64,000 nucleotides of DNA from Escherichia coli 042 (GTDB taxonomy: Bacteria > Pseudomonadota > Gammaproteobacteria > Enterobacterales > Enterobacteriaceae). The notes below the pieces were generated by a model that did not search any database, was not told the DNA's origin, and worked only from the letters and a program-made list of their open reading frames with translations. This document shows positions 34,010 through 51,394 of the stretch, piece after piece. Position 1 is the first letter of the stretch, and every line of letters starts with the position of its first letter. A program made the translations under genes and the position numbers. The stretch lies in NCBI RefSeq assembly GCF_000027125.1, contig NC_017627.1. One strand, given 5' to 3'.

Positions 34010-34430
34010 ATGTATACCTCTTTATTTTCTTATCGAATCAAATTTATTTCACATATAAAAAAATGACAATTCATCGATGAATCGAATCGTGACGCAAGTT
34101 ACGAAAATTACGATTCATGCAGCAAATCACATCACGAATTGAATCTAGAGTCAATTCGCTTTAACTCGTTGTTTTATTATTACTGATTCATCTATGAGTT
34201 GCGTTAAATTCATTGGTGAATCATATGCGATTCACCAATGAATCCTTTTTATAATGTAAAATAAATTAAAATACATTATTTAAAACATAAGTTAATGATT
34301 CAAATAGCAAATCAGCAAAAACTTGTTTTTGCGTGGGGTGTGGTGCTTTTGGTGGTGAGAACCACCAACCTGTTGAGCCTTTTTGTGGAGTGGGTTAAAT
34401 TATTTACGGATAAAGTCACCAGAGGTGGAA
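34010..34430 (+). promoter_or_regulatory. oriT: oriT (origin of transfer); nic site predicted between 34341 and 34342 on the plus strand
   Basis: F-type nic motif GTGGGGTGT/GGTGCTTTT at 34333-34350 between traM and orf169; AT-rich region 34020-34300. Confidence 0.85.
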
Positions 34431-36483: not shown

Positions 36484-36944
36484 GATGTTTTCAGCCCCCA
36501 TCATCTGTTGAGTTTCGGGAGCCGCGGTTTTGACGTTTTGCGGGGACCTGCCTTTTGTTCCCTCCGGTATTCACCATCACCTGTTTGAGAACCTTCGCCG
36601 CAAGGGGCATCACTGCCACGGCCTGACGCACCTGTCCTGGGCAGAACGCAAAATTTTTTACCGGGTTTTAGGTAAAAAATTTTGTGGTCTGTTCATTTAC
36701 CCTGGACAGTCAGTGCGGCAGGTTGTGGCTGTATCAGCCCCCGGCGACAGGGGCTTAAACAGGTGAATGGCACCGGACACAACAACGGGCAGGGACCCGC
36801 CGCAACGACGTGAAGCGCGGTTTGCGAAACGGCGTTGCGCCTTACATCCCGGCGGCCTTTTGCCGGGATGCCAGGAGCGCAGGCCACGGCGCGACAGAGG
36901 CGGCGCGACCGGAACGGTCGCTGCAAGCCCGGGGTTTCGCGTCA
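36484..36944. repeat. Frpo-like repeat A (putative single-stranded DNA promoter element)
   Basis: Near-identical to 42053-42506 and 45451-45900; internal palindromes such as aaaattttttaccgggttttaggtaaaaaatttt. Confidence 0.7.
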
Positions 36945-41507: not shown

Positions 41508-42035
41508 TCAGAACGGAATGTCGTCATCGAAGTCATACGCGGGTTCAGACGGCTGCTGAGGCTCGGGCTGCGCGGCCTTACGTCCACGGCCTTTCGTTTT
41601 CGCGCCACCTTTTTTCAGTTCCGGCTGTGATTCCGGCTGAGGCTGACCGCTGAACTGTTGCGCCTCTTCCGGCTGAGTCTGAGTACCTGCGGCACGTCCC
41701 AGCATCTGCATGGTGCCCGTGGTCTTAACAAGAATTTCGGTGACGTAACGGGTGATACCGTTATCCTCCCAGCTACGGGTGCGAAGCTGACCTTCGATGT
41801 AGACCTGCGCGCCCTTGCGCAGATACTCACCAGCCACTTCCGCGAGCTTGCCGAACAGCACCACGCGATGCCATTCTGTCTGCTCCCGCATCTCCCCCGT
41901 CTGTTTGTCACGCCAGCTTTCTGACGTGGCCACCTGCAGGTTTGCCACTGCGCCCCCGTTGGGGATGTAACGGATTTCCGGATCTTTTCCCAGACGACCG
42001 ACAAGAATGACCTTGTTAATGCCACGAACTGCCAT
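41508..42035 (-). CDS. ssb: Plasmid single-stranded DNA-binding protein
   Basis: 175 aa from [23 protein letters not shown]..., acidic tail DFDDDIPF. Confidence 0.95.
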
Positions 42036-42052
42036 GATGTGTCTCCTTCTGT

Positions 42053-42690
42053 TGATGTTTTCAGCCCCCATCATCTGTTGAGTTTCGGGAGCCGCGGTTT
42101 TGACGTTTTGCGGGGACCTGCCTTTTGTTCCCTCCGGTATTCACCATCACCTGTTTGAGAACCTTCGCCGCAAGGGGCATCACTGCCACGGCCTGACGCA
42201 CCTGTCCTGGGCAGAACGCAAAATTTTTTACCGGGTTTTGGGTAAAAAATTTTGTGGGCTGTTCATTTACCCTGGACAGTCAGTGCGGCAGGTTGTGGCT
42301 GTATCAGCCCCCGGCGACAGGGGCTTAAACAGGTGAATGGCACCGGACAGAACAACGGGCAGGGACCCGCCGCAACGACGTGAAGCGCGGTTTGCGAAAC
42401 GGCGTTGCGCCTTACATCCTGGCGGCCTTTTGCCGGGATGCCGGGAGCGCAGGCCACGGCGCGACAGAGGCGGCGCGACCGGAACGGTCGCTGCAAGCCC
42501 GGGGTTTTCACGCATCGGACCGTAGCGACAGCCCGAAACCGCGCCAGCGGGTTCGGCGGAGACTGGCGGGTGCGCCAGCAGCTGCCTGTCGGAGTCGGGC
42601 CTGACGACCGGATGCCGCCAGGCAGCCGGGAGCCGAAGGTGCGCCCGGCAGACAGGACAACACTGCAGTAGTCAGAATCAGAGCGGCAGG
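42053..42690. repeat. Frpo-like repeat B, immediately upstream of ssb
   Basis: Near-identical to repeat A over about 450 bp and to repeat C over about 600 bp. Confidence 0.7.
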
Positions 42691-42700
42691 AAAAAGAAGA

Positions 42701-42784
<84 letters not shown>

Positions 42785-42961
42785 ACAACAACATCATCAG
42801 TAACAGACAAATGACAGGTCTGAAAAGACAGAAGCCCCCATCAGAACGTCCGCGTAATGAAAGGGGCGGCGCGTGAGCGCGGCCCCTTTCAGCGCCACCG
42901 GCGCGCGGTCTTTTCCCGGCGCGGACAGACGGGCATTTATCCTCCCGCCAGCCCTGTGTCA

Positions 42962-43525
42962 TCAGGCACGCAAACGAATAATCATCGTCGGGACATCGGT
43001 ATAAGCAAACGTGCCGCGCGGCAGCTCCTCGCGGATGTCAGAAAACGGTAACAGCTTCTCCTGCTGGCGCGGCCCGTTCAGACAGACGGCAACCAGCACG
43101 CCCCCCGGACGCAACAGGGAAAAAGCCCGCAGGATATGCCGGATATCCTGCCCGTGGATGAACGGCGGATTCATAATGATCCGGCTGTAATACTGCACCG
43201 GCTGCCATTCCATGAAGTCGCCACACTGTACCCTGACACCGTTAAAATTTTCCCGCAGATACCGGACCAGCCCGCTGTTAATCTCCACCGCATCACACAT
43301 GGCCTCCGGCGCGGTATCCCGAATCGCCCGCAGTATGGCCCCGGTGCCGGCAGAGGGTTCCAGAATGTGATCACGGTTGCTGATTTCCGCCAGCGTCACC
43401 AGGCGATCACAGACCGGGGCAGGACTCACAAAAAGCTGAGATTCAGCCCGGATTTCAGCAACCGGCGCGGCGTTATCCAGCCTTGCGCGCATCAGCCGGA
43501 TACGTTCTCTTAACTGACTGTGCAT
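42962..43525 (-). CDS. Small orphan SAM-dependent N6-adenine DNA methyltransferase-like protein
   Basis: 187 aa; motif I-like EPSAGTGAI followed by NPPF (motif IV); no adjacent restriction gene. Confidence 0.75.
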   Translation of the reverse strand: MHSQLRERIRLMRARLDNAAPVAEIRAESQLFVSPAPVCDRLVTLAEISNRDHILEPSAGTGAILRAIRDTAPEAMCDAVEINSGLVRYLRENFNGVRVQCGDFMEWQPVQYYSRIIMNPPFIHGQDIRHILRAFSLLRPGGVLVAVCLNGPRQQEKLLPFSDIREELPRGTFAYTDVPTMIIRLRA

Positions 43526-43571
43526 GTCATTATCTCCGTCATCCCCCGGGGATTTCCCGGGGGGATATACC

Positions 43572-44933
43572 TTATTTCTGTGGGATTTCCGTGATTTTCA
43601 TGTCGGTAATATACACATTCACCAGGCGGAAATTATTGTCCATTGTGCGGCGGTAGCGGTATGCCCCGTGGTCTTCTGTCTCTGCCACACTGCGCACGGC
43701 CTTACAGTCCCGGGGCAGGGCGGCCCACTGCGCCTTTGTCATTTCCCGGAAACCTTCCCCCGGATAGTTGACTACCGGCGGACGCTTCGCGGCCTGACTG
43801 GCGACGGCAGCCTCTTCTGCCGATGGTGCTTTGTAGTCCGTGATGCGATCGGGCGTCACTTTCATCGTGCCGCTGTACCCGAGAAAACTGTAATTTGGCG
43901 TTGTGACTGAACTCACCGCCCCGTTGCTTTTGTTCACGCGGATGATGGTCAGCCACTCGCCCCGGCTGAAAACCTGTCCGCCCGGCTCAAAATCCTGTGT
44001 CCGGGTAACCACGCCGCCGCTTTCGTCCAGCATGGCACGCTCATAGATCAGGCGGTTCTGATAGTGGTTAACCCAGCGTTGCTGATGCTGAATCTGCCGT
44101 TCATGACAGCGGATCGCAATTTCGCGGGCCTGCTCCGTGGTGATGATGTCATCATCCAGGGCCGACCATAACGATCGACTTCCTTCATACTGGCTTTTTT
44201 CTGCCGGGCGCGGATACCTGTCCAGCGGGAAACAGGCGCTGATATGGTCATGACTGCTGATGAGTTTTGCCATATTCAGATCCAGCGATTCAGCCCGCCA
44301 CATCGTCAGATATTTCTGCGACTGTGCGATGGTCTTTTCCGCCTTGCGCAAATCAGCTTCGATTTTTTTGATACGACGCCAGCGAACGTCCGGACGTTCT
44401 TTATACTTCGCGTGAAGCAGTGCCGACCGCGCCCGCTCTTCCCAGTATTCCGCACGTTCAAAGAGCATCACAGCACGTTTCATACCGTTTTCAATACGCT
44501 GTGCATCACGACGGGCGCGGCGTTCGCTGTGATGCCCCACAAGAATGGGCTGACCGGGCGGGATCATCGCGGCCAGTCTTTCCACTTCATCAAGTGCCTG
44601 TGCGGATTCACTGGCCCGCTTTCCGCTGTATCCGGTAAACCGCTCCGCCCGTGCTTCCTGACGTTCAGCGAGCGTGCTGTCTTCATCCTCAATCTCTCCG
44701 GCAAGTGAGAGGAGCACGTCTTCCCGGCCCGGTGTCCAGGCTGGCGCGACAAACAGCGCCTGTTTGGGTGCCCAGCGAAAACCGGCATCATGCACTTTTT
44801 TATACGTCTCCGGGTCAAGACGTGACGCGGCATACAGGCGCAGTTTGTTGTCATCCGGTGAGTAGGTCGCGCGGTACATCTGCACAGGGCTGGCGGCTTC
44901 CGGGGCGGTCATGGTGATTGCTGCTAATGTCAT
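43572..44933 (-). CDS. Conserved leading-region hypothetical protein (453 aa)
   Basis: Long ORF with charged coiled-coil-like middle region; no catalytic motif recognised. Confidence 0.55.
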   Translation of the reverse strand: MTLAAITMTAPEAASPVQMYRATYSPDDNKLRLYAASRLDPETYKKVHDAGFRWAPKQALFVAPAWTPGREDVLLSLAGEIEDEDSTLAERQEARAERFTGYSGKRASESAQALDEVERLAAMIPPGQPILVGHHSERRARRDAQRIENGMKRAVMLFERAEYWEERARSALLHAKYKERPDVRWRRIKKIEADLRKAEKTIAQSQKYLTMWRAESLDLNMAKLISSHDHISACFPLDRYPRPAEKSQYEGSRSLWSALDDDIITTEQAREIAIRCHERQIQHQQRWVNHYQNRLIYERAMLDESGGVVTRTQDFEPGGQVFSRGEWLTIIRVNKSNGAVSSVTTPNYSFLGYSGTMKVTPDRITDYKAPSAEEAAVASQAAKRPPVVNYPGEGFREMTKAQWAALPRDCKAVRSVAETEDHGAYRYRRTMDNNFRLVNVYITDMKITEIPQK

Positions 44934-44984
44934 AAAATGTTCTCCTTCCGTCTGTTGCCGCCCCTCGCGGGGCGGCTCACCTCA

Positions 44985-45215
44985 TCAGTTAAAAGCGCGT
45001 TTCAGTTCGAGTGTGCGGAGCACCTGCCCGAAAGCCGTATTTTTCATGGCGGGGATGTGTACACCACGTCCCCGGTGAAAACTCCGGGCAATGTGTCGCC
45101 CGAAGGCTTTCAGCACGGGGTCAATTTCCGGCGCGGGGATGTCTTCGCGTCTGAAACGGGGATGACGGCGGGGCTTTACAGCCGCTGCGGAAGGTGAAAC
45201 AATACTTACTGTCAT
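44985..45215 (-). CDS. Small hypothetical protein (76 aa)
   Basis: First ORF downstream of Frpo-like repeat C. Confidence 0.3.
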   Translation of the reverse strand: MTVSIVSPSAAAVKPRRHPRFRREDIPAPEIDPVLKAFGRHIARSFHRGRGVHIPAMKNTAFGQVLRTLELKRAFN

Positions 45216-45450
45216 AAATGCATCCTTATGACTGTTGACTGGAGCCGCAAAAACTGTTCGTGCAGTCTCTGCAGCATGGATTAAGCAGGTTCCTGACCTG
45301 CTTTTTTCATATCTGCATCTGACGCTTTCCGGTGTTTTCCTCCTTCTGTTCCTGCGTTCTCATTACCTGCCAGCCGGATGACTGACAGAACACATAAATG
45401 CGTATTGCCGGAGCCTGAAATAAATCCTGATTTTTAAAGAACATCACCCG

Positions 45451-46060
45451 TTGAGTTTCGGGAGCCGCGGTTTTGACGTTTCGCGGGAACCTGCTGCTGT
45501 ATTCCCTGTGGTATGAACTTCACCCGTTTGAGAACCTTCGCCGCAAGGGGCATCACTGCCACGGCCTGACGCACCTGTCCTGGGCAGAACGCAAAATTTT
45601 TTACCGGGTTTTGGGTAAAAATTTTTGTGGGTTGTTCATTTACCCTGGACAGTCAGTGCGGCAGGTTGTGGCTGTATCAGCCCCCGGCGACAGGGACTCA
45701 TACGGGTGTGTGGCACCCGGCAGGCAATGAGCAGGGGCCCGCTGCAACGACGAAGAGCGCGTGCGCGAAACGGCGTTGCGCCTTACATTCCGGCGGCCTT
45801 TTGCCGGGATGCCGGGAGCGCAGGCCACGGCGCGACAGAGGCGGCGCGACCGGAACGGTCGCTGCAAGCCGGGGGTTTTCACGCATCGGACCGTAGCGAC
45901 AGCCCGAAACCGCGCCAGCGGGTTCGGCGGAGACTGGCGGGTGCGCCAGCAGCTGCCTGTCGGAGTCGGGCCTGACGACCGGATGCCGCCAGGCAGCCGG
46001 GAGCCGAAGGTGCGTCCGGCAGACAGAACAACACTGCAGTAGTCAGAATCAGAGCAGCAG
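45451..46060. repeat. Frpo-like repeat C
   Basis: Shares about 600 bp with repeat B including the tail ...cactgcagtagtcagaatcagag. Confidence 0.7.
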
Positions 46061-46247
46061 ATAAAGGAACAACAACATCAGGAACAGTTCCATAACATAA
46101 GAAAGAAACACTCCTGAGTCAGACACATCACAGACGGGAAGGGTAACGGGCGACGCGCCAGCGTGGCCCGCTTCCCTTCCGGCAGGCGTCAGCCTGCCAG
46201 GGGTTTTCGCGCGGGCTGACAGGCGGCCTCCACCGCCTGCCCCTGTA

Positions 46248-46439
46248 TCACCTGTTTCTGCTGCCCTGTAAGATGTAGTGACCGCCCAGGAAAACCGCCT
46301 GCTGATTCGCCACAAAATCGCAGATTTCATCAACAATCTGCGCGGTGGTGAGCGGTTTCTGCCCCATTTCACGACGCCGCGCATTAATCACGGCCCTGTA
46401 ATTACGCAGAATTTCGCGGGTTTCCGTGCTGATATTCAT
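46248..46439 (-). CDS. Small hypothetical protein (63 aa)
   Basis: ORF overlapping the stop of the upstream gene by 4 bp (operon-like). Confidence 0.35.
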   Translation of the reverse strand: MNISTETREILRNYRAVINARRREMGQKPLTTAQIVDEICDFVANQQAVFLGGHYILQGSRNR

Positions 46440-46858
46440 GACATCGTCTCCCCGTCCAGCGCCTGCAACACAACGTCCATTGCTTCGCGTTCCTCCCTGA
46501 CGAATGCGTCACCGTCGCCCCCGTTCTCACTCCCGACGGCATACAGGCGCTTCATTTCACTGCCTGCCAGCGCCATCACTTTTTCCAGCATCACCGCCGG
46601 GACTGTCACCTGACGGCTGGCGTGCTTTTCCTCCATCAGTTCACGAACAACGTCGTGAACAACGCTGACATCCGCACCATGCTCAAAGGCATCGTCCAGC
46701 CGCTGCATGACGGTTTCCAGCTCATCGTCTGTCAGACTCCAGTCCTGGGCTATGTGACGCACATCCCCACGAGTCAGCACCACGGCAAAAACGCATTCAC
46801 TGTCCGGCACGTCTGTATCCAGCACTTCGCGGATAATTTCTTTAACAGTACAGTACAT
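46436..46858 (-). CDS. Hypothetical leading-region protein (140 aa), paralog of 48561-48995
   Basis: Shares MY.T...E...RQVTVPA..L pattern with the 144-aa ORF. Confidence 0.5.
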   Translation of the reverse strand: MYCTVKEIIREVLDTDVPDSECVFAVVLTRGDVRHIAQDWSLTDDELETVMQRLDDAFEHGADVSVVHDVVRELMEEKHASRQVTVPAVMLEKVMALAGSEMKRLYAVGSENGGDGDAFVREEREAMDVVLQALDGETMS

Positions 46859-46904
46859 GTTCTCGTCTCCTTTACAGGGGCGGCATTGCCGCCCCGTCCG
46901 TTAA

Positions 46905-47330
46905 TCAGTCCAGCGCCGCATAAATCGCGTTACATTCGGGGTGAAATTCGATGTGGCTCCACAACTGCGCATCGCGCATCCTGTACAGGTGAGTCAGCCC
47001 TGCGCTACCGCTGTCGTGGTACAGCCACAACTGGCGGTTAATCACAAGGGAGGTCAGGATGATGCCTGCGGCATCAGCACTCACGGTACGGTCAAACCAG
47101 TTTTCACCGTTAACCAGATGAAAACGGTCGCCATCCGGCATCATGTAACCGCCACCGTCCGGCAGGCGGATGAAGTGCCAGAATCCGCCTTCATATTCCG
47201 GCATCATTTTTTTCGCCAGCGCGTACACAGATGCCTCGGCATACAGAAAATCCAGGCCAAACAGGTAAGGCAGAAAGGAGAGACGGTCGCACTCTTCAAC
47301 ATTCAGAGTGACAGGTTTCGCATATTGCAT
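46905..47330 (-). CDS. klcA: KlcA/ArdB-family anti-restriction protein
   Basis: 141 aa [25 protein letters not shown]...[21 protein letters not shown] resembling KlcA/ArdB. Confidence 0.8.
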
Positions 47331-47366
47331 GATGTTTTCCTCCGTTGTTCACATATTCCGCGACAC

Positions 47367-47600
47367 CGGGCGGTGCCGTGCCTCCATCTTTGCCGGGCCT
47401 GCAGGGTTGCAAGGGCGCAAGGGAAGCCGCAGCCTGACGCACACGGCTGGCGGGAGTTGGAGGGTGAGACCGCGAAATCTGAGCGGGTGAACGACCGGAA
47501 AATCACGGCAGACGGGAAGGAGGGACCGGGTGACCGCAGCGGTTCACCTTACCTTGCAACCCGCCCGCAGAAGCCCGGCTACGATGGAGGCACGGCACAG
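47367..47600. promoter_or_regulatory. Long imperfect inverted repeat (about 230-nt hairpin) upstream of klcA; candidate ssDNA promoter distinct from the Frpo-like repeats
   Basis: Arms 47367-47415 and 47548-47600 are reverse complements (ccgtgcctccatc / gatggaggcacgg; gggttgcaagg / ccttgcaaccc). Confidence 0.45.
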
Positions 47601-47745
47601 CCCGCACACGACGCTGAGGCCACATAACTGAAAACCCACAAGGCCATGCCCCGCATGGCCGGGTAAAGCGGAGCCTGCGGCGACATCCTTTTGCTCTTTC
47701 CGGGGACCGGCTGGAAAAGGCGGAGATTTTTCCCCGCCAGCGTCA

Positions 47746-48561
47746 TCATTTCCGGATTTTCGCCAGTGCATCCGCCATGCTGCGGATTTCATCCCGTGCC
47801 TCCAGAACAACCTCCCGCAGAATATCCCGGTCAAACCAGCGACGGGACGGTTCATCCGGTATACGCAGCACATCACAGACCAGACCACTGGACAGGATAT
47901 GCTCCACACACTCACTGACCAGATACATTTCCACCGCCGAAAAACGTGCTCCCCGGTTCAGGATAGCATCGAGCACCACGGGCAGATTTTCGTCATCTTC
48001 ATCAAGCCAGCAGGGGTAATCGCTTTCCTTCACAACCAGACGAAAGCGGCGCGTCTGGCGGGTCAGCAACGTCTGACCGGTGGTGGTCAGCGCCGCACGG
48101 ATACGCCGCGCATCTTCTGCCACCCGGCAACTGACACTGCATACTGCATCGCGCACCGCATCAAGAACCGCCCTGATTTCTTCCTCCGTCAGCCATTCAC
48201 CGGCATACGGGAAAGACACCTGCGTTCCGTCTGCCGGAAGTACCGGCAGCGACTGCCACTGACTGCCGGACAGAACAAGTTCCGCTCCGGTTCCGGTCAG
48301 TTTCTGAATGGCAGAGGCCAGGAGCGGCGGCAGTACGCCGCCGTGACGGTTGATAAGTAACGTCGCCAGCCGGGGCGCATCCAGCCGCACGTAAATGCTG
48401 ATCCAGCCCGGATAGTGCGGATTCAGTTGTTCAATATCCGTCTCTTCCGGCCAGCCCTGCGCCAGCAGCAGGTTACGGGCGTGGCGATAAACCAGTGCAT
48501 TCAGCGTTTTGTTCATGATTAATGGTCTCCCTGAATCGCCGCCCGAAAGCGGCGATAACAT
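47746..48561 (-). CDS. Hypothetical leading-region protein (271 aa)
   Basis: ORF contiguous with the upstream 144-aa ORF (stop/start adjacency). Confidence 0.5.
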
Positions 48562-48995
48562 CAGTCGTTTTCGTGTGTGTTGTTTTTCAGCAGGGCGCGG
48601 GCCTGATTAACCACCGCCTGACGGCGGGTGACACATTCCGGGACGGCGAGGCCATGATCCCGGGCGGCCCATTCACGTTTCCACAGTGCCTGTTCGGCGG
48701 TCTGAATCAGGGACGCCAGCAGTTCAGCCGGGACGGTCACCTGGCGGTTTTCTCTCACGTTATTGATGATCTCCATCGCCACGCCGGAAGAAATACCGGA
48801 TTCAGTCCGCTGGTCTTCCGGGATGTCCTCCAGGCGCGCCAGGACAGTCCTGATTTCATGATCGGACAGGGAAATATCCATTCCGTCAGCGAGGGCCTGA
48901 ATTTCTTCCGGGGACCAGATAACCAGCATCAGCGGCGTGTCTCCCGGATACTGCGCTGCCAGCTCCCGGCATAGCGTTTCGCATGTTCCGTACAT
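48561..48995 (-). CDS. Hypothetical leading-region protein (144 aa), paralog of 46436-46858
   Basis: Conserved [10 protein letters not shown] motif and N-terminal MY.TCE. Confidence 0.5.
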
Positions 48996-49008
48996 TCTCG
49001 TCTCCTTC

Positions 49009-49230
49009 TCAATCTTTGAAGCAGGAATCCAGTTCCAGAATTTCGGTATACGCCTCCATGAACAGGCGATTGGCGCGATACAGCGTCTGGCGTGTCAGGC
49101 GTTCAACAAGCACATCGGAATCAAAGCGACAGCGATGCTCCATATCGTTCAGCCTGGCCCGAAGGTCACACATGGTGTTGGCCACCTCCGCCACGTCGGC
49201 GCGAAGTTTTTCGTGTCCGGCATAGTTCAT
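49009..49230 (-). CDS. Small hypothetical protein (73 aa)
   Basis: ORF directly downstream of the methyltransferase gene. Confidence 0.35.
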   Translation of the reverse strand: MNYAGHEKLRADVAEVANTMCDLRARLNDMEHRCRFDSDVLVERLTRQTLYRANRLFMEAYTEILELDSCFKD

Positions 49231-49914
49231 TTACGCAGCCTCCGGTTCAAACCAGTTATCATTCGCGGCCCCCTGCTGCATGGCCCGTTGCACGGCGGCC
49301 AGTCGTTGCTGTCCGGCACGGTGATACTGTTCAAGCAGCTCGATACCGATATACCGGCGTCCGGACTGAAGGGCGGCGACGCAGGTTGAGCCGCTGCCTG
49401 CAAACGGGTCCAGCACAATCGCGTTCGGGTGTGTGAAGCTCTCAATCAGCGGTTGCAGGCTGGTAACGGGCTTTTCAGTCGGGTGATGACGATTGCCTGA
49501 ATATTTCCAGCCCAGCACGTCGGGCAATGGCTTCTGAGGCAGCGCCGGACGTCCTTTTGCCAGGATGTAGGCGCATTCGTGGCGATAGCCCACATATGCG
49601 GCCTTCGATGTGTAGGTTTTGGTAAACACCAGGTGGCCAACCACGCTGAATCCCGCATTTTTCCAGGCGGCCATAAAGCGATCGACGCGGTTCCAGCCAT
49701 AGAAGCTCACCATTAACGCGTCTTTTTTGAGTACGCGGTACATTTCATTACAGGCTGGTTGCAGCCATTCATCGGTTTTATCGCCGGCGATGGTGCGCCC
49801 GGAACGGTCACGGAAACCGACGAGATACGGCGGGTCGGTGAGGATGAAATCGACAGCATTGCCCGGAAACGTGGCCATAACACGCACGCAGTCACCCAGG
49901 ATAAAACGGGACAT
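49231..49914 (-). CDS. Orphan DNA adenine methyltransferase-like protein (beta-class amino-MTase motif order)
   Basis: 227 aa; DPPY motif (ILTDPPYLVGF) N-terminal and FxGxG-type DPFAGSGST C-terminal; no cognate endonuclease nearby. Confidence 0.85.
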   Translation of the reverse strand: MSRFILGDCVRVMATFPGNAVDFILTDPPYLVGFRDRSGRTIAGDKTDEWLQPACNEMYRVLKKDALMVSFYGWNRVDRFMAAWKNAGFSVVGHLVFTKTYTSKAAYVGYRHECAYILAKGRPALPQKPLPDVLGWKYSGNRHHPTEKPVTSLQPLIESFTHPNAIVLDPFAGSGSTCVAALQSGRRYIGIELLEQYHRAGQQRLAAVQRAMQQGAANDNWFEPEAA

Positions 49915-50249
49915 AACAGCACTCCTTCTCTTACAGAGGGCACCGGGAGGGCACCCCTGTGGTGCCCGTTCCCCGCTGCCTGTGGGCTGTTCACCGCGTC
50001 CGGTAACGGGTCAGGCCGACCGTGGAATACCGCAGCCGTCGTCTTTTTGACGGCAAGGCTATGCCGCGAAAGCGGCTTGAAGGGCGTTCATCAGAAAAGG
50101 GCTCCCGGCTGGCGTACACTGTCACCAACGCCAGCCGGGAGCGGTAAAAGCGCCCGTCCCGTGCCCGGCCGGACGCGGGACACTGACCACAGGCAGCGTT
50201 CCTGCCGCGCCGCGTCAGCCGGCGCAGTAAAAAGAGGAGCCCGGCGACA

Positions 50250-50431
50250 TCTTTTGTCACCCGCCAAACAAAACCCAAAAACAACCCACACCCAACCCAA
50301 TAAAACACCAAAACAAGACAAACAATCATTGATTGATGGTTAAAATGGGGTAAACTTGACAAATAAACCCACTTAAAACCCAAAACATACCCAAATACAC
50401 ACCAAAAAAAACACCATAAGGAGTTTTATAA
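50250..50431 (+). promoter_or_regulatory. parC: parC-like centromere/promoter region upstream of parM
   Basis: A/C-rich repeated motifs (aaaccc, acccaa, aaaaca) upstream of the parM RBS. Confidence 0.55.
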
Positions 50432-51394
50432 ATGTTGGTATTCATTGATGACGGTTCAACAAACATCAAACTACAGTGGCAGGAAAGCGACGGAACAATT
50501 AAACAGCACATTAGCCCGAACAGCTTCAAACGCGAGTGGGCAGTCTCTTTTGGTGATAAAAAGGTCTTTAACTACACACTGAACGGCGAACAGTATTCAT
50601 TTGATCCAATCAGCCCGGATGCTGTAGTCACAACCAATATCGCATGGCAATACAGCGACGTTAATGTCGTTGCGGTGCATCACGCCTTACTGACCAGTGG
50701 TCTGCCGGTAAGCGAAGTGGATATTGTTTGCACACTTCCTCTGACAGAGTATTACGACAGGAATAACCAACCCAATACGGAAAATATTGAGCGTAAGAAA
50801 GCAAACTTCCGGAAAAAAATTATATTAAATGGTGGGGATACATTCACAATAAAAGATGTAAAAGTCATGCCTGAATCTATACCAGCAGGTTATGAAGCTC
50901 TACAAGAACTGGATGAGTTAGATTCTTTATTAATTATAGACCTCGGGGGCACCACATTAGATATTTCTCAGGTAATGGGGAAATTATCAGGGATCAGTAA
51001 AATATACGGAGACTCATCTCTTGGTGTATCTCTGGTCACATCTGCAGTAAAAGATGCACTTTCTCTTGCGAGAACAAAAGGAAGTAGCTATCTTGCTGAC
51101 GATATAATTATTCACAGAAAAGACAACAACTATCTGAAGCAACGAATTAATGATGAGAACAAAATATCAATAGTCACCGAAGCAATGAATGAAGCACTTC
51201 GTAAACTTGAGCAACGTGTATTAAATACGCTCAATGAATTTTCTGGTTATACGCATGTTATGGTTATAGGCGGTGGCGCAGAATTAATATGCGATGCAGT
51301 AAAAAAACACACACAGATTCGTGATGAACGTTTTTTCAAAACCAATAACTCTCAATATGATTTAGTTAACGGTATGTATCTCATAGGTAATTAA
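50432..51394 (+). CDS. parM: ParM (StbA) actin-like partition ATPase
   Basis: 320 aa [32 protein letters not shown]..., essentially R1 ParM. Confidence 0.97.

Follow-up and report, generated by a model that had tools for sequence, protein, structure and literature searches.

Why should a conjugative plasmid carry two adenine methyltransferase genes, neither beside a recognizable restriction endonuclease, in the part of its DNA that first enters a recipient cell? The question is raised by a stretch of 64,000 nucleotides from Escherichia coli 042 (contig NC_017627.1), called the window here, which as a whole is F-type conjugative plasmid. The original prediction singled out two open reading frames (ORFs), ORF A and ORF B, as orphan methyltransferases of different motif architecture that protect the entering DNA against more than one restriction specificity. 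ORF listing together with Pfam and NCBIfam searches placed both ORFs where they had been predicted, on the minus strand and with the motifs described, and their matches lie far beyond chance. As set out below, ORF B is a near-copy of a characterized anti-restriction enzyme, M.EcoGIX, while ORF A (ydcA) is best understood together with the product of its neighbor, ydbA. The overall explanation that we favor, and judge rather probable, is that both genes of this leading region would be expressed early from single-stranded DNA (ssDNA) promoters and that their products would methylate the entering DNA.

The location in the leading region, also part of the original prediction, was borne out by the transfer origin and by the gene content on either side of it. 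An exact match to the 19-mer GCGTGGGGTGTGGTGCTTT, the nic sequence of F, lies on the plus strand (Table 1). This identifies the plus strand as the one transferred, so that entry begins with the DNA from 34.3 kb upward, and the leading region extends from 34.3 to ~50.3 kb. On one side of nic, traM, the 5' untranslated region of traJ, FinP, and the tra genes occupy ~27.5 to 34.0 kb on the minus strand. Going up on the other side, the order is DUF932, hok/sok, psiA, psiB, a ParB-like gene, DUF905, ssb, ORF A, and the DUF3560 gene ydbA, followed by a 76-residue ORF, a 63-residue ORF, a DUF1380 gene, and the KlcA/ArdB antirestriction gene, and then by a 271-residue ORF, a second DUF1380 gene, a 73-residue ORF, and ORF B. 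The leading-region genes all lie on the minus strand, with the transferred plus strand as their template; beyond ORF B, parM starts at 50432 on the plus strand.

ORF A and its DUF3560 partner

ORF A encodes 187 amino acids behind a ribosome-binding site, GGAG, located 8 nucleotides (nt) before its ATG. LEPSAGTGAI at residues 55 to 64 (ILEPSAGTGAILRAI) is followed by NPPF at residues 119 to 122 (IIMNPPFIHG), and motifs X (QLFVTP), I, and IV (NPPF) stand in gamma-class sequence. The protein matched the Pfam family MTS at 6e-7 (29.7 bits; cut-off 23), and its best match among solved sequences in the PDB was M.TaqI (4e-6). The original prediction had named the lack of an S-adenosylmethionine-binding fold as an outcome that would speak against it. 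This was checked for ORF A: an AlphaFold model built with 27 orthologues shows a Rossmann methyltransferase fold, with a mean predicted local distance difference test score (pLDDT) of 86.8, and its top-ranked structural matches include M.TaqI, HsdM, and PacII. Throughout the 27 orthologues, which reach down to 51% identity, QLF(V/I)TP, LEPxAGTG, and MNPPF are invariant, as are the D/E in DAVE, the DF, and the C-terminal LPxGTFxYT.

Wider comparisons related ORF A to the internal methyltransferase domains of giant phage proteins in PHROGs (1.7e-30 to 4.6e-20) and, in PADLOC, to mad2, the methyltransferase MAD2 of the MADS defence system (9e-20), and to type II methyltransferases (7e-11). With hhalign, it aligned with residues 75 to 279 of phage P1 DarB at 93.8 to 96.4% probability, and with the methyltransferase domain of a 3066-residue, LPD38-bearing Vibrio podovirus protein at 99.8% probability (E = 5e-29). 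An EcoKI/TaqI-like adenine "DNA methylase" module with an N-terminal TP motif is known from polyvalent proteins (Iyer et al. 2017, PMC5512222). By these family matches, ORF A is a gamma-class N6-adenine methyltransferase core of predicted DNA type.

The DUF3560 gene next to ORF A has been named ydbA (PMC3438092). To place the pair, we searched 1.84 billion representative proteins with a profile of the ORF A family, and obtained 15159 representatives, including 504 below 1e-30. The nearest relatives are mostly proteins of 550 to 850 residues that end in the ORF A-like domain, and 8 of 10 sampled distant relatives have an N-terminal DUF3560 domain. When hidden Markov models made from the window's YdbA were applied to the 135 nearest representatives, whole YdbA was present in 55 and its C-terminal half only in 32 more; stand-alone ORF A-like proteins accounted for just 18. 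One fusion of 669 residues (P0132) aligns with YdbA residues 22 to 444 (48% identity, 9e-131) and, in the next, colinear part, with YdcA residues 30 to 185 (45% identity, 4e-39). The split pair is found again in the same gene order in a Salmonella plasmid with a YdcA of 65% identity, and also as overlapping genes on an unrelated metagenome contig. Clustered at 90% identity, the two proteins form groups of nearly equal size (5718 and 5613 members). Given the fusions, the recurring split pair, and the equal cluster sizes, ORF A is not a solitary orphan but the catalytic subunit of YdbA plus YdcA. Thus, of the two orphan methyltransferases originally proposed, the two methyltransferase genes stand, but the solitary state of ORF A does not, ORF A being the catalytic half of a split protein.

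The contexts of the fused genes are arrays of small genes with integrases, resolvases, RadC, a VapE-like domain gene, and HNH genes, and no restriction endonuclease was evident near them in the contexts inspected. These metagenomic contexts look integrative or prophage-like. We considered the fused form as a phage protein and set this aside, since isolated phage genomes gave only one weak partial match. On a Pantoea-type plasmid contig (L018:5839-7594), YdbA is itself split in two, a 191-residue protein with DUF3560 and a 152-residue protein, followed by a 197-residue methyltransferase; that module lies in a leading region with RadC and an LPD29/LPD30 polyvalent-type gene, beside SLT and TraM. 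A metagenome element with a fused DUF3560-methyltransferase also has a separate N6_N4_Mtase (beta-class) gene (L009:15501-16628), and the pairing of both methyltransferase types may recur outside IncF plasmids.

The AlphaFold model of YdbA (pLDDT 90.5) comprises a small alpha/beta domain at residues 20 to 83, long helical hairpins at residues 88 to 304, with a basic DUF3560 part (pI 10.2), and a beta-rich C-terminal region at residues 320 to 445. Conserved features include GQPILVGHHSE and many arginines. YdbA, and above all its C-terminal half, could serve as the target-recognition part for YdcA. Our literature search found no functional study of DUF3560 or of ydbA/ydcA.

ORF B as an IncF orthologue of M.EcoGIX

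In ORF B, DPPY at residues 27 to 30 (FILTDPPYLVG) precedes DPFAGSGST at residues 169 to 177 (VLDPFAGSGSTCVAA), which is the beta-class order. It matched the Pfam family N6_N4_Mtase at 2e-40 and the NCBIfam model PRK13699 with 497 bits (cut-off 244; 5e-150), covering residues 1 to 227, and its solved relatives are CcrM, RsrI, and DpnA-type enzymes. ORF B shares 91% identity with M.EcoGIX of pESBL and 98% with YfeA of F. The pESBL record holds a sole DNA methylase, at positions 54782-55465, which is called M.EcoGIX in the gene table of Yamaichi et al., where the F gene is called YfeA (PMC4288162). Full-length PRK13699 membership, beta-class architecture, and the place and orientation in the leading region behind a hairpin are all those of an M.EcoGIX-type gene.

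Deletion of M.EcoGIX reduces transfer of pESBL into EcoRI or EcoGIII recipients up to ~1000-fold (PMC4288162). Fomenkov et al. (PMC7736820) place the M.EcoGIX family in the beta class and describe N6-methyladenine formation on single-stranded DNA in a loose SAY context, on one strand only and at ~40% of sites; they also describe an enzyme that is silent in established cells and a protection of the entering plasmid that depends on the orientation of oriT. The proposal of protective methylation therefore has experimental backing for ORF B by way of this orthologue, although the demonstration concerns that orthologue only. What did not hold is the matching of two orphans to separate restriction specificities: M.EcoGIX is promiscuous, not site-specific, so that one gene already blunts many restriction enzymes.

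The ~340 nt 5' of ORF B are ~97% identical to pESBL and F, apparently exceeding the conservation of the coding sequence, and as plus-strand ssDNA they fold into a single long hairpin (-106.1 kcal/mol, z = -8.0). A 2025 study reported that the M.EcoGIX operon of pESBL and the homologous F operon are induced in early transconjugants and attributed this induction to a new type of ssDNA promoter, "class 3," which F also conserves (PMC12672017). The order of the genes downstream of ORF B is identical in pESBL and F.

On this basis, ORF B would be transcribed in the recipient within minutes of entry, with the incoming strand providing an ssDNA hairpin promoter. Its enzyme would then promiscuously methylate adenines in SAY contexts of the incoming single strand; the later duplex would be hemimethylated at many sites and so partly protected against many restriction enzymes, and the gene would fall silent after the plasmid is established. 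These steps are known for orthologues and, at 91 to 98% identity and in a conserved context, very probably apply here. We therefore regard ORF B as already explained, with a function presumably carried over by near-identity and conserved context; it is a further copy of a characterized anti-restriction methyltransferase and adds nothing new.

Proposed early expression and protective methylation, and rival explanations

Can ORF A be expressed in the same early phase? A block of ~625 bp is present twice (42069-42693 and 45442-46064), the copies being 95 to 97% identical, and both align with the ssiD/Frpo sequence of F, for which the reference was taken from Samuel et al. Copy 1 lies directly upstream of ssb (42074-41508, minus strand), and copy 2 lies upstream of the 76-residue ORF, ydbA, and ydcA. 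As plus-strand ssDNA, copy 2 forms one long hairpin of ~325 nt (-94.9 kcal/mol, z = -7.9). A promoter scan found no sigma-70-like promoter on the coding strand within 42000-50450. F has neither the ydbA-ydcA module nor the extra Frpo that belongs to it, and in the Salmonella lineage with the 65% identical YdcA, a Frpo core lies directly 5' of the module. The 26-nt Frpo/ssiD core occurs in three exact copies, all on the transferred strand (36510-36535, 42080-42105, and 45453-45478); for F, only Frpo1 and Frpo2 are named in the literature (PMC12672017).

Opposite the 5' end of the operon formed by the 76-residue ORF, ydbA, and ydcA lies the antisense RNA AS-pc01. It has its own sigma-70-like promoter (45175-45203, plus strand), the only promoter-like site in 42000-50450, and a terminator-like hairpin (45283-45303). 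Because its template is the complementary strand, AS-pc01 could be transcribed only after duplex formation, when it may shut off the Frpo-driven operon. The G+C-rich palindromic hairpin beyond ORF A is a possible end of this operon. The 76-residue ORF at the operon head was considered as a conserved third component and rejected, since, in the two contexts compared, the small ORFs that precede fused homologues do not resemble it.

Both methyltransferase genes thus lie in the first-entering part of the plasmid, each behind DNA predicted to fold as a single strand into a long hairpin of a type known from other work to serve as an ssDNA promoter. For ORF A, the operon would be expressed early from its own Frpo copy, and YdbA and YdcA would methylate adenines in the entering DNA, with YdbA contributing substrate binding, handling, or targeting. 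Such a unit would form a second, mechanistically different protective layer. Here the analogy with DarB is a lead rather than a test, and our own opinion is close to evenly divided, leaning slightly toward this mechanism. With somewhat more doubt than belief, we further suggest that YdbA plus YdcA may be a distinct two-part DNA-modifying anti-restriction enzyme of conjugative plasmids and further mobile elements, with its own ssDNA promoter and with targeting by a fold-orphan DUF3560 protein; it might complement the M.EcoGIX type, for instance against type I systems as DarB does, and switch-off by an antisense RNA might apply to it.

Several observations weigh against the proposal that the two genes protect entering DNA. 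F and pESBL, the plasmids with early-conjugation RNA sequencing, both lack the ydbA-ydcA module. The methylome study of EC958 listed one methyltransferase for pEC958 and assigned no motif to any plasmid gene, and pEC958 carries both genes, ydbA-ydcA included. Neither the sequence nor the model of ORF A contains a target-recognition domain, since the chain stops ~65 residues after NPPF. Foldseek put TrmN, Erm, and KsgA alongside M.TaqI for the ORF A model, and the sequence has weak, sub-threshold similarity to the ribosomal RNA (rRNA) methyltransferases Erm and KsgA and to the HemK protein methyltransferase. For YdbA, no relatives beyond DUF3560 were found by phmmer, by a profile search of PDB sequences, or by permissive Pfam, NCBIfam, and PADLOC searches. 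As for ORF B, the homology with pESBL, F, and pO145 on its 5' side breaks at ~50258, so that the integrity of its promoter is judged from the fold only. The window lacks the DUF1281 gene that pESBL and pO145 have, together with the 5' portion of a small ORF of theirs, and this plasmid has thus undergone a deletion or rearrangement where the leading region ends.

Other readings compete with this explanation. Together with YdbA, ORF A could modify RNA (rRNA, transfer RNA, or a plasmid transcript) or a host protein instead of DNA, perhaps so as to adjust translation or inactivate a host defence factor. Its 187-residue core has no target-recognition domain, as is usual for RNA and protein methyltransferases; the weak matches extend to Erm, KsgA, HemK/PrmC, and TrmN, and EC958 carries ORF A, yet no plasmid-attributable DNA motif has been reported for it. 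The matches of the Erm/KsgA type, however, all fall far under curated cut-offs: ORF A scored 31.7 bits with Erm (cut-off 212) and 29.1 bits with KsgA (cut-off 171), and the Erm, KsgA, and HemK models overall gave 22 to 32 bits against cut-offs of 115 to 212, so that it does not belong to the Erm or KsgA family. Far stronger are the matches to the DNA methyltransferase domains of polyvalent phage proteins, MAD2, type II methyltransferases, M.TaqI, and DarB, and the N-terminal F-x-T-P motif is characteristic of EcoKI/TaqI-like DNA adenine methyltransferases (PMC5512222). We consider an RNA or protein substrate unlikely. A different rival, which concerns both methyltransferases, keeps DNA as the substrate and sees the main role in plasmid competition or replication control, such as handicapping plasmids that depend on DNA polymerase I (PolI) and ssDNA phages in the cell. 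It draws on Fomenkov et al. (PMC7736820), who report that M.EcoGIX depends on the mode of replication, associates with PolI, lowers the copy number of ColE1 and p15A replicons, and suppresses M13 growth. These effects, however, came from artificial expression constructs, whereas the native gene is silent in established cells; moreover, the deletion phenotype that was measured for M.EcoGIX is lost restriction protection during transfer (PMC4288162). This role seems to us quite improbable.

We give still less credence to YdbA being an unrecognized nuclease that, with YdcA, makes up a split restriction-modification or type IIG-like enzyme. The idea has some appeal in that an N-terminal effector followed by a C-terminal gamma-class methyltransferase resembles type IIG enzymes, that YdbA has an invariant GHHSE motif and many conserved arginines, and that some databases label it "hydrolase" or "HD superfamily hydrolase." We found no support for the "hydrolase" label, and whole-model fold searches with YdbA, in which its domains were not searched separately, returned no informative structural relative and no nuclease fold. 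More generally, the original prediction's remark that neither gene has an adjacent endonuclease agrees with our searches: no recognizable endonuclease adjoins ORF A or ORF B, their neighbors had no PADLOC matches, and Pfam assigned these neighbors DUF3560, DUF1380, or nothing; no cognate endonuclease of a type II restriction-modification system was recognized. Hardly credible, finally, is the view that ORF A is non-functional, a gene in decay that has simply traveled with the leading region. Databases do contain numerous truncated or frameshifted copies, and F and pESBL manage without the module, but the catalytic motifs of ORF A are intact and are invariant across the orthologues, ORF A is present, mostly at full length, in 2770 of 5426 complete E. 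coli genomes, and the gene pair has been kept with its Frpo in diverged lineages.

Both genes are widespread, ORF A being present in 51% and ORF B in 62% (3373 of 5426) of those genomes, almost always on plasmids. The idea of protective methylation is not new: Samuel et al. 2024 already listed both families as leading-region-enriched DNA methyltransferases, and the family of ORF B has been documented explicitly in IncF plasmids. What is added here are modest leads, namely, the split-fusion relation of YdcA and YdbA, the kinship of YdcA with the polyvalent-protein/DarB methylase module, and a dedicated Frpo copy with an antisense RNA. ORF A matters as half of a conserved DUF3560-methyltransferase unit that about half of complete E. 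coli genomes carry, on plasmids that spread antibiotic resistance. Should this unit indeed shield DNA on entry, IncF plasmids would have a second establishment function based on methylation, and DUF3560 would gain a role.

Neighboring features and comparison with known systems

Table 1. Features located in and around the leading region, with positions in the window
Feature	Position	Strand	Remarks
F-type oriT nic sequence	34331-34349	+	Exact 19-mer match
Frpo/ssiD (class 1 ssDNA promoter), copy 1	42064-42693	+	Aligns with F ssiD (D90178); core at 42080
G+C-rich palindromic hairpin	42860-42889		Read from sequence; 73 nt past the ORF A stop
ORF A (ydcA)	42962-43525	-	187-residue gamma-class (TaqI/EcoKI/DarB-like) N6-adenine methyltransferase core
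ydbA, partner of ORF A	43572-44933	-	453-residue DUF3560 protein; Pfam DUF3560 5e-37
76-residue ORF, operon head downstream of Frpo copy 2	44985-45215	-	
AS-pc01 antisense RNA (Rfam RF02875)	45210-45306	+	94 bits; gathering score 79
Frpo/ssiD (class 1 ssDNA promoter), copy 2	45437-46064	+	Aligns with F ssiD; core at 45453
DUF1380 gene	46436-46858	-	Pfam DUF1380 only
271-residue ORF	47746-48561	-	Downstream of ORF B, same direction
DUF1380 gene	48561-48995	-	Downstream of ORF B, same direction; Pfam DUF1380 only
73-residue ORF	49009-49230	-	Downstream of ORF B, same direction
ORF B, IncF orthologue (YfeA) of M.EcoGIX	49231-49914	-	227-residue beta-class N6-adenine DNA methyltransferase
Untranslated region 5' of ORF B	49915-50257	+	Candidate class 3 ssDNA promoter (conservation and ssDNA hairpin fold)

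The 10.5-kb stretch around these genes has matches at 90 to 99% identity in at least 5000 plasmid records, most of which are conjugative IncF plasmids from Escherichia, Klebsiella, Salmonella, and Shigella. A six-frame scan of the 64-kb window for (D/N/S)PP(Y/F/W/H) combined with a motif-I-like match found no third methyltransferase ORF. The two DUF1380 genes were considered as further methyltransferases and rejected, Pfam giving only DUF1380 and the motif scan not picking them. Families 7 and 14 (DUF1380) of Samuel et al. 2024 bear the UniProt-derived name "adenine-specific methyltransferase," which, on the same two grounds, looks like a propagated annotation error.

Some further sequence features were noted in passing. 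Upstream of the KlcA/ArdB gene, the plus strand at 47367-47607 forms a long ssDNA hairpin (z = -5.3) and, by eye, apparently shares the string GACACCGGGCGGTGCCGTG with a Frpo-like candidate of Samuel et al.; these features fit the "class 2" ssDNA promoter of klcA/ardA. Between the ORF A stop and Frpo copy 1, a perfect-looking microsatellite of 14 units, (AGCAGT)n(AGCAGG)n, at 42699-42784 yields spurious poly-Leu and poly-Ala/Pro ORFs. From ~50258 to 50431, A+T-rich sequence replaces the homology with pESBL, F, and pO145 and leads to parM.

How closely do the two genes resemble known systems? ORF B has the same length and motif order as M.EcoGIX of the IncI1 plasmid pESBL, known also as YfbB of R64, YfeA of F, and M.EcoMVIII of pEC958. 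It shares with M.EcoGIX the place in the leading region, the conserved hairpin-forming region upstream, and the downstream set of a 73-residue ORF, DUF1380, a ~260-residue ORF, and KlcA/ArdB. It differs by 21 substitutions and by the absence of the upstream DUF1281 gene from the window.

The methyltransferase domains of P1 DarB and of the Vibrio phage polyvalent protein align with the whole of ORF A (F-x-T-P, motif I, NPPF, and LPxGTF), and like these proteins, ORF A would be deployed when foreign DNA enters the cell. Polyvalent proteins, however, are giant and delivered with the DNA, whereas ORF A is a free-standing protein that the recipient would produce from the incoming DNA. It lacks both the N-terminal LPD36 and the C-terminal SF2/SNF2 helicase of the DarB dyad, to which it therefore does not belong, and its partner is a DUF3560 protein, a domain absent from the polyvalent proteins examined. 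Its catalytic Rossmann core and its motif order, X-I-II-III-IV-V, are those of M.TaqI and EcoKI HsdM, but it has neither the C-terminal target-recognition domain of M.TaqI nor the S subunit of EcoKI, and no cognate endonuclease.

In the survey of Samuel et al. 2024, ORF B corresponds to family 8 (K07319; 3753 members; median ORF position 21 from oriT). We take ORF A to be family 26 (K07317/K00561; 1957 members; position 11), judging by the number of members, the ORF position, and the KEGG labels rather than by sequence comparison. Family 28 (DUF3560/YdbA; 1913 members; position 12) adjoins it, and for DUF3560 that survey gave only a structural match to a "methyltransferase domain protein." There the methyltransferase and DUF3560 families are separate entries, unlike the single YdbA-YdcA unit proposed here.

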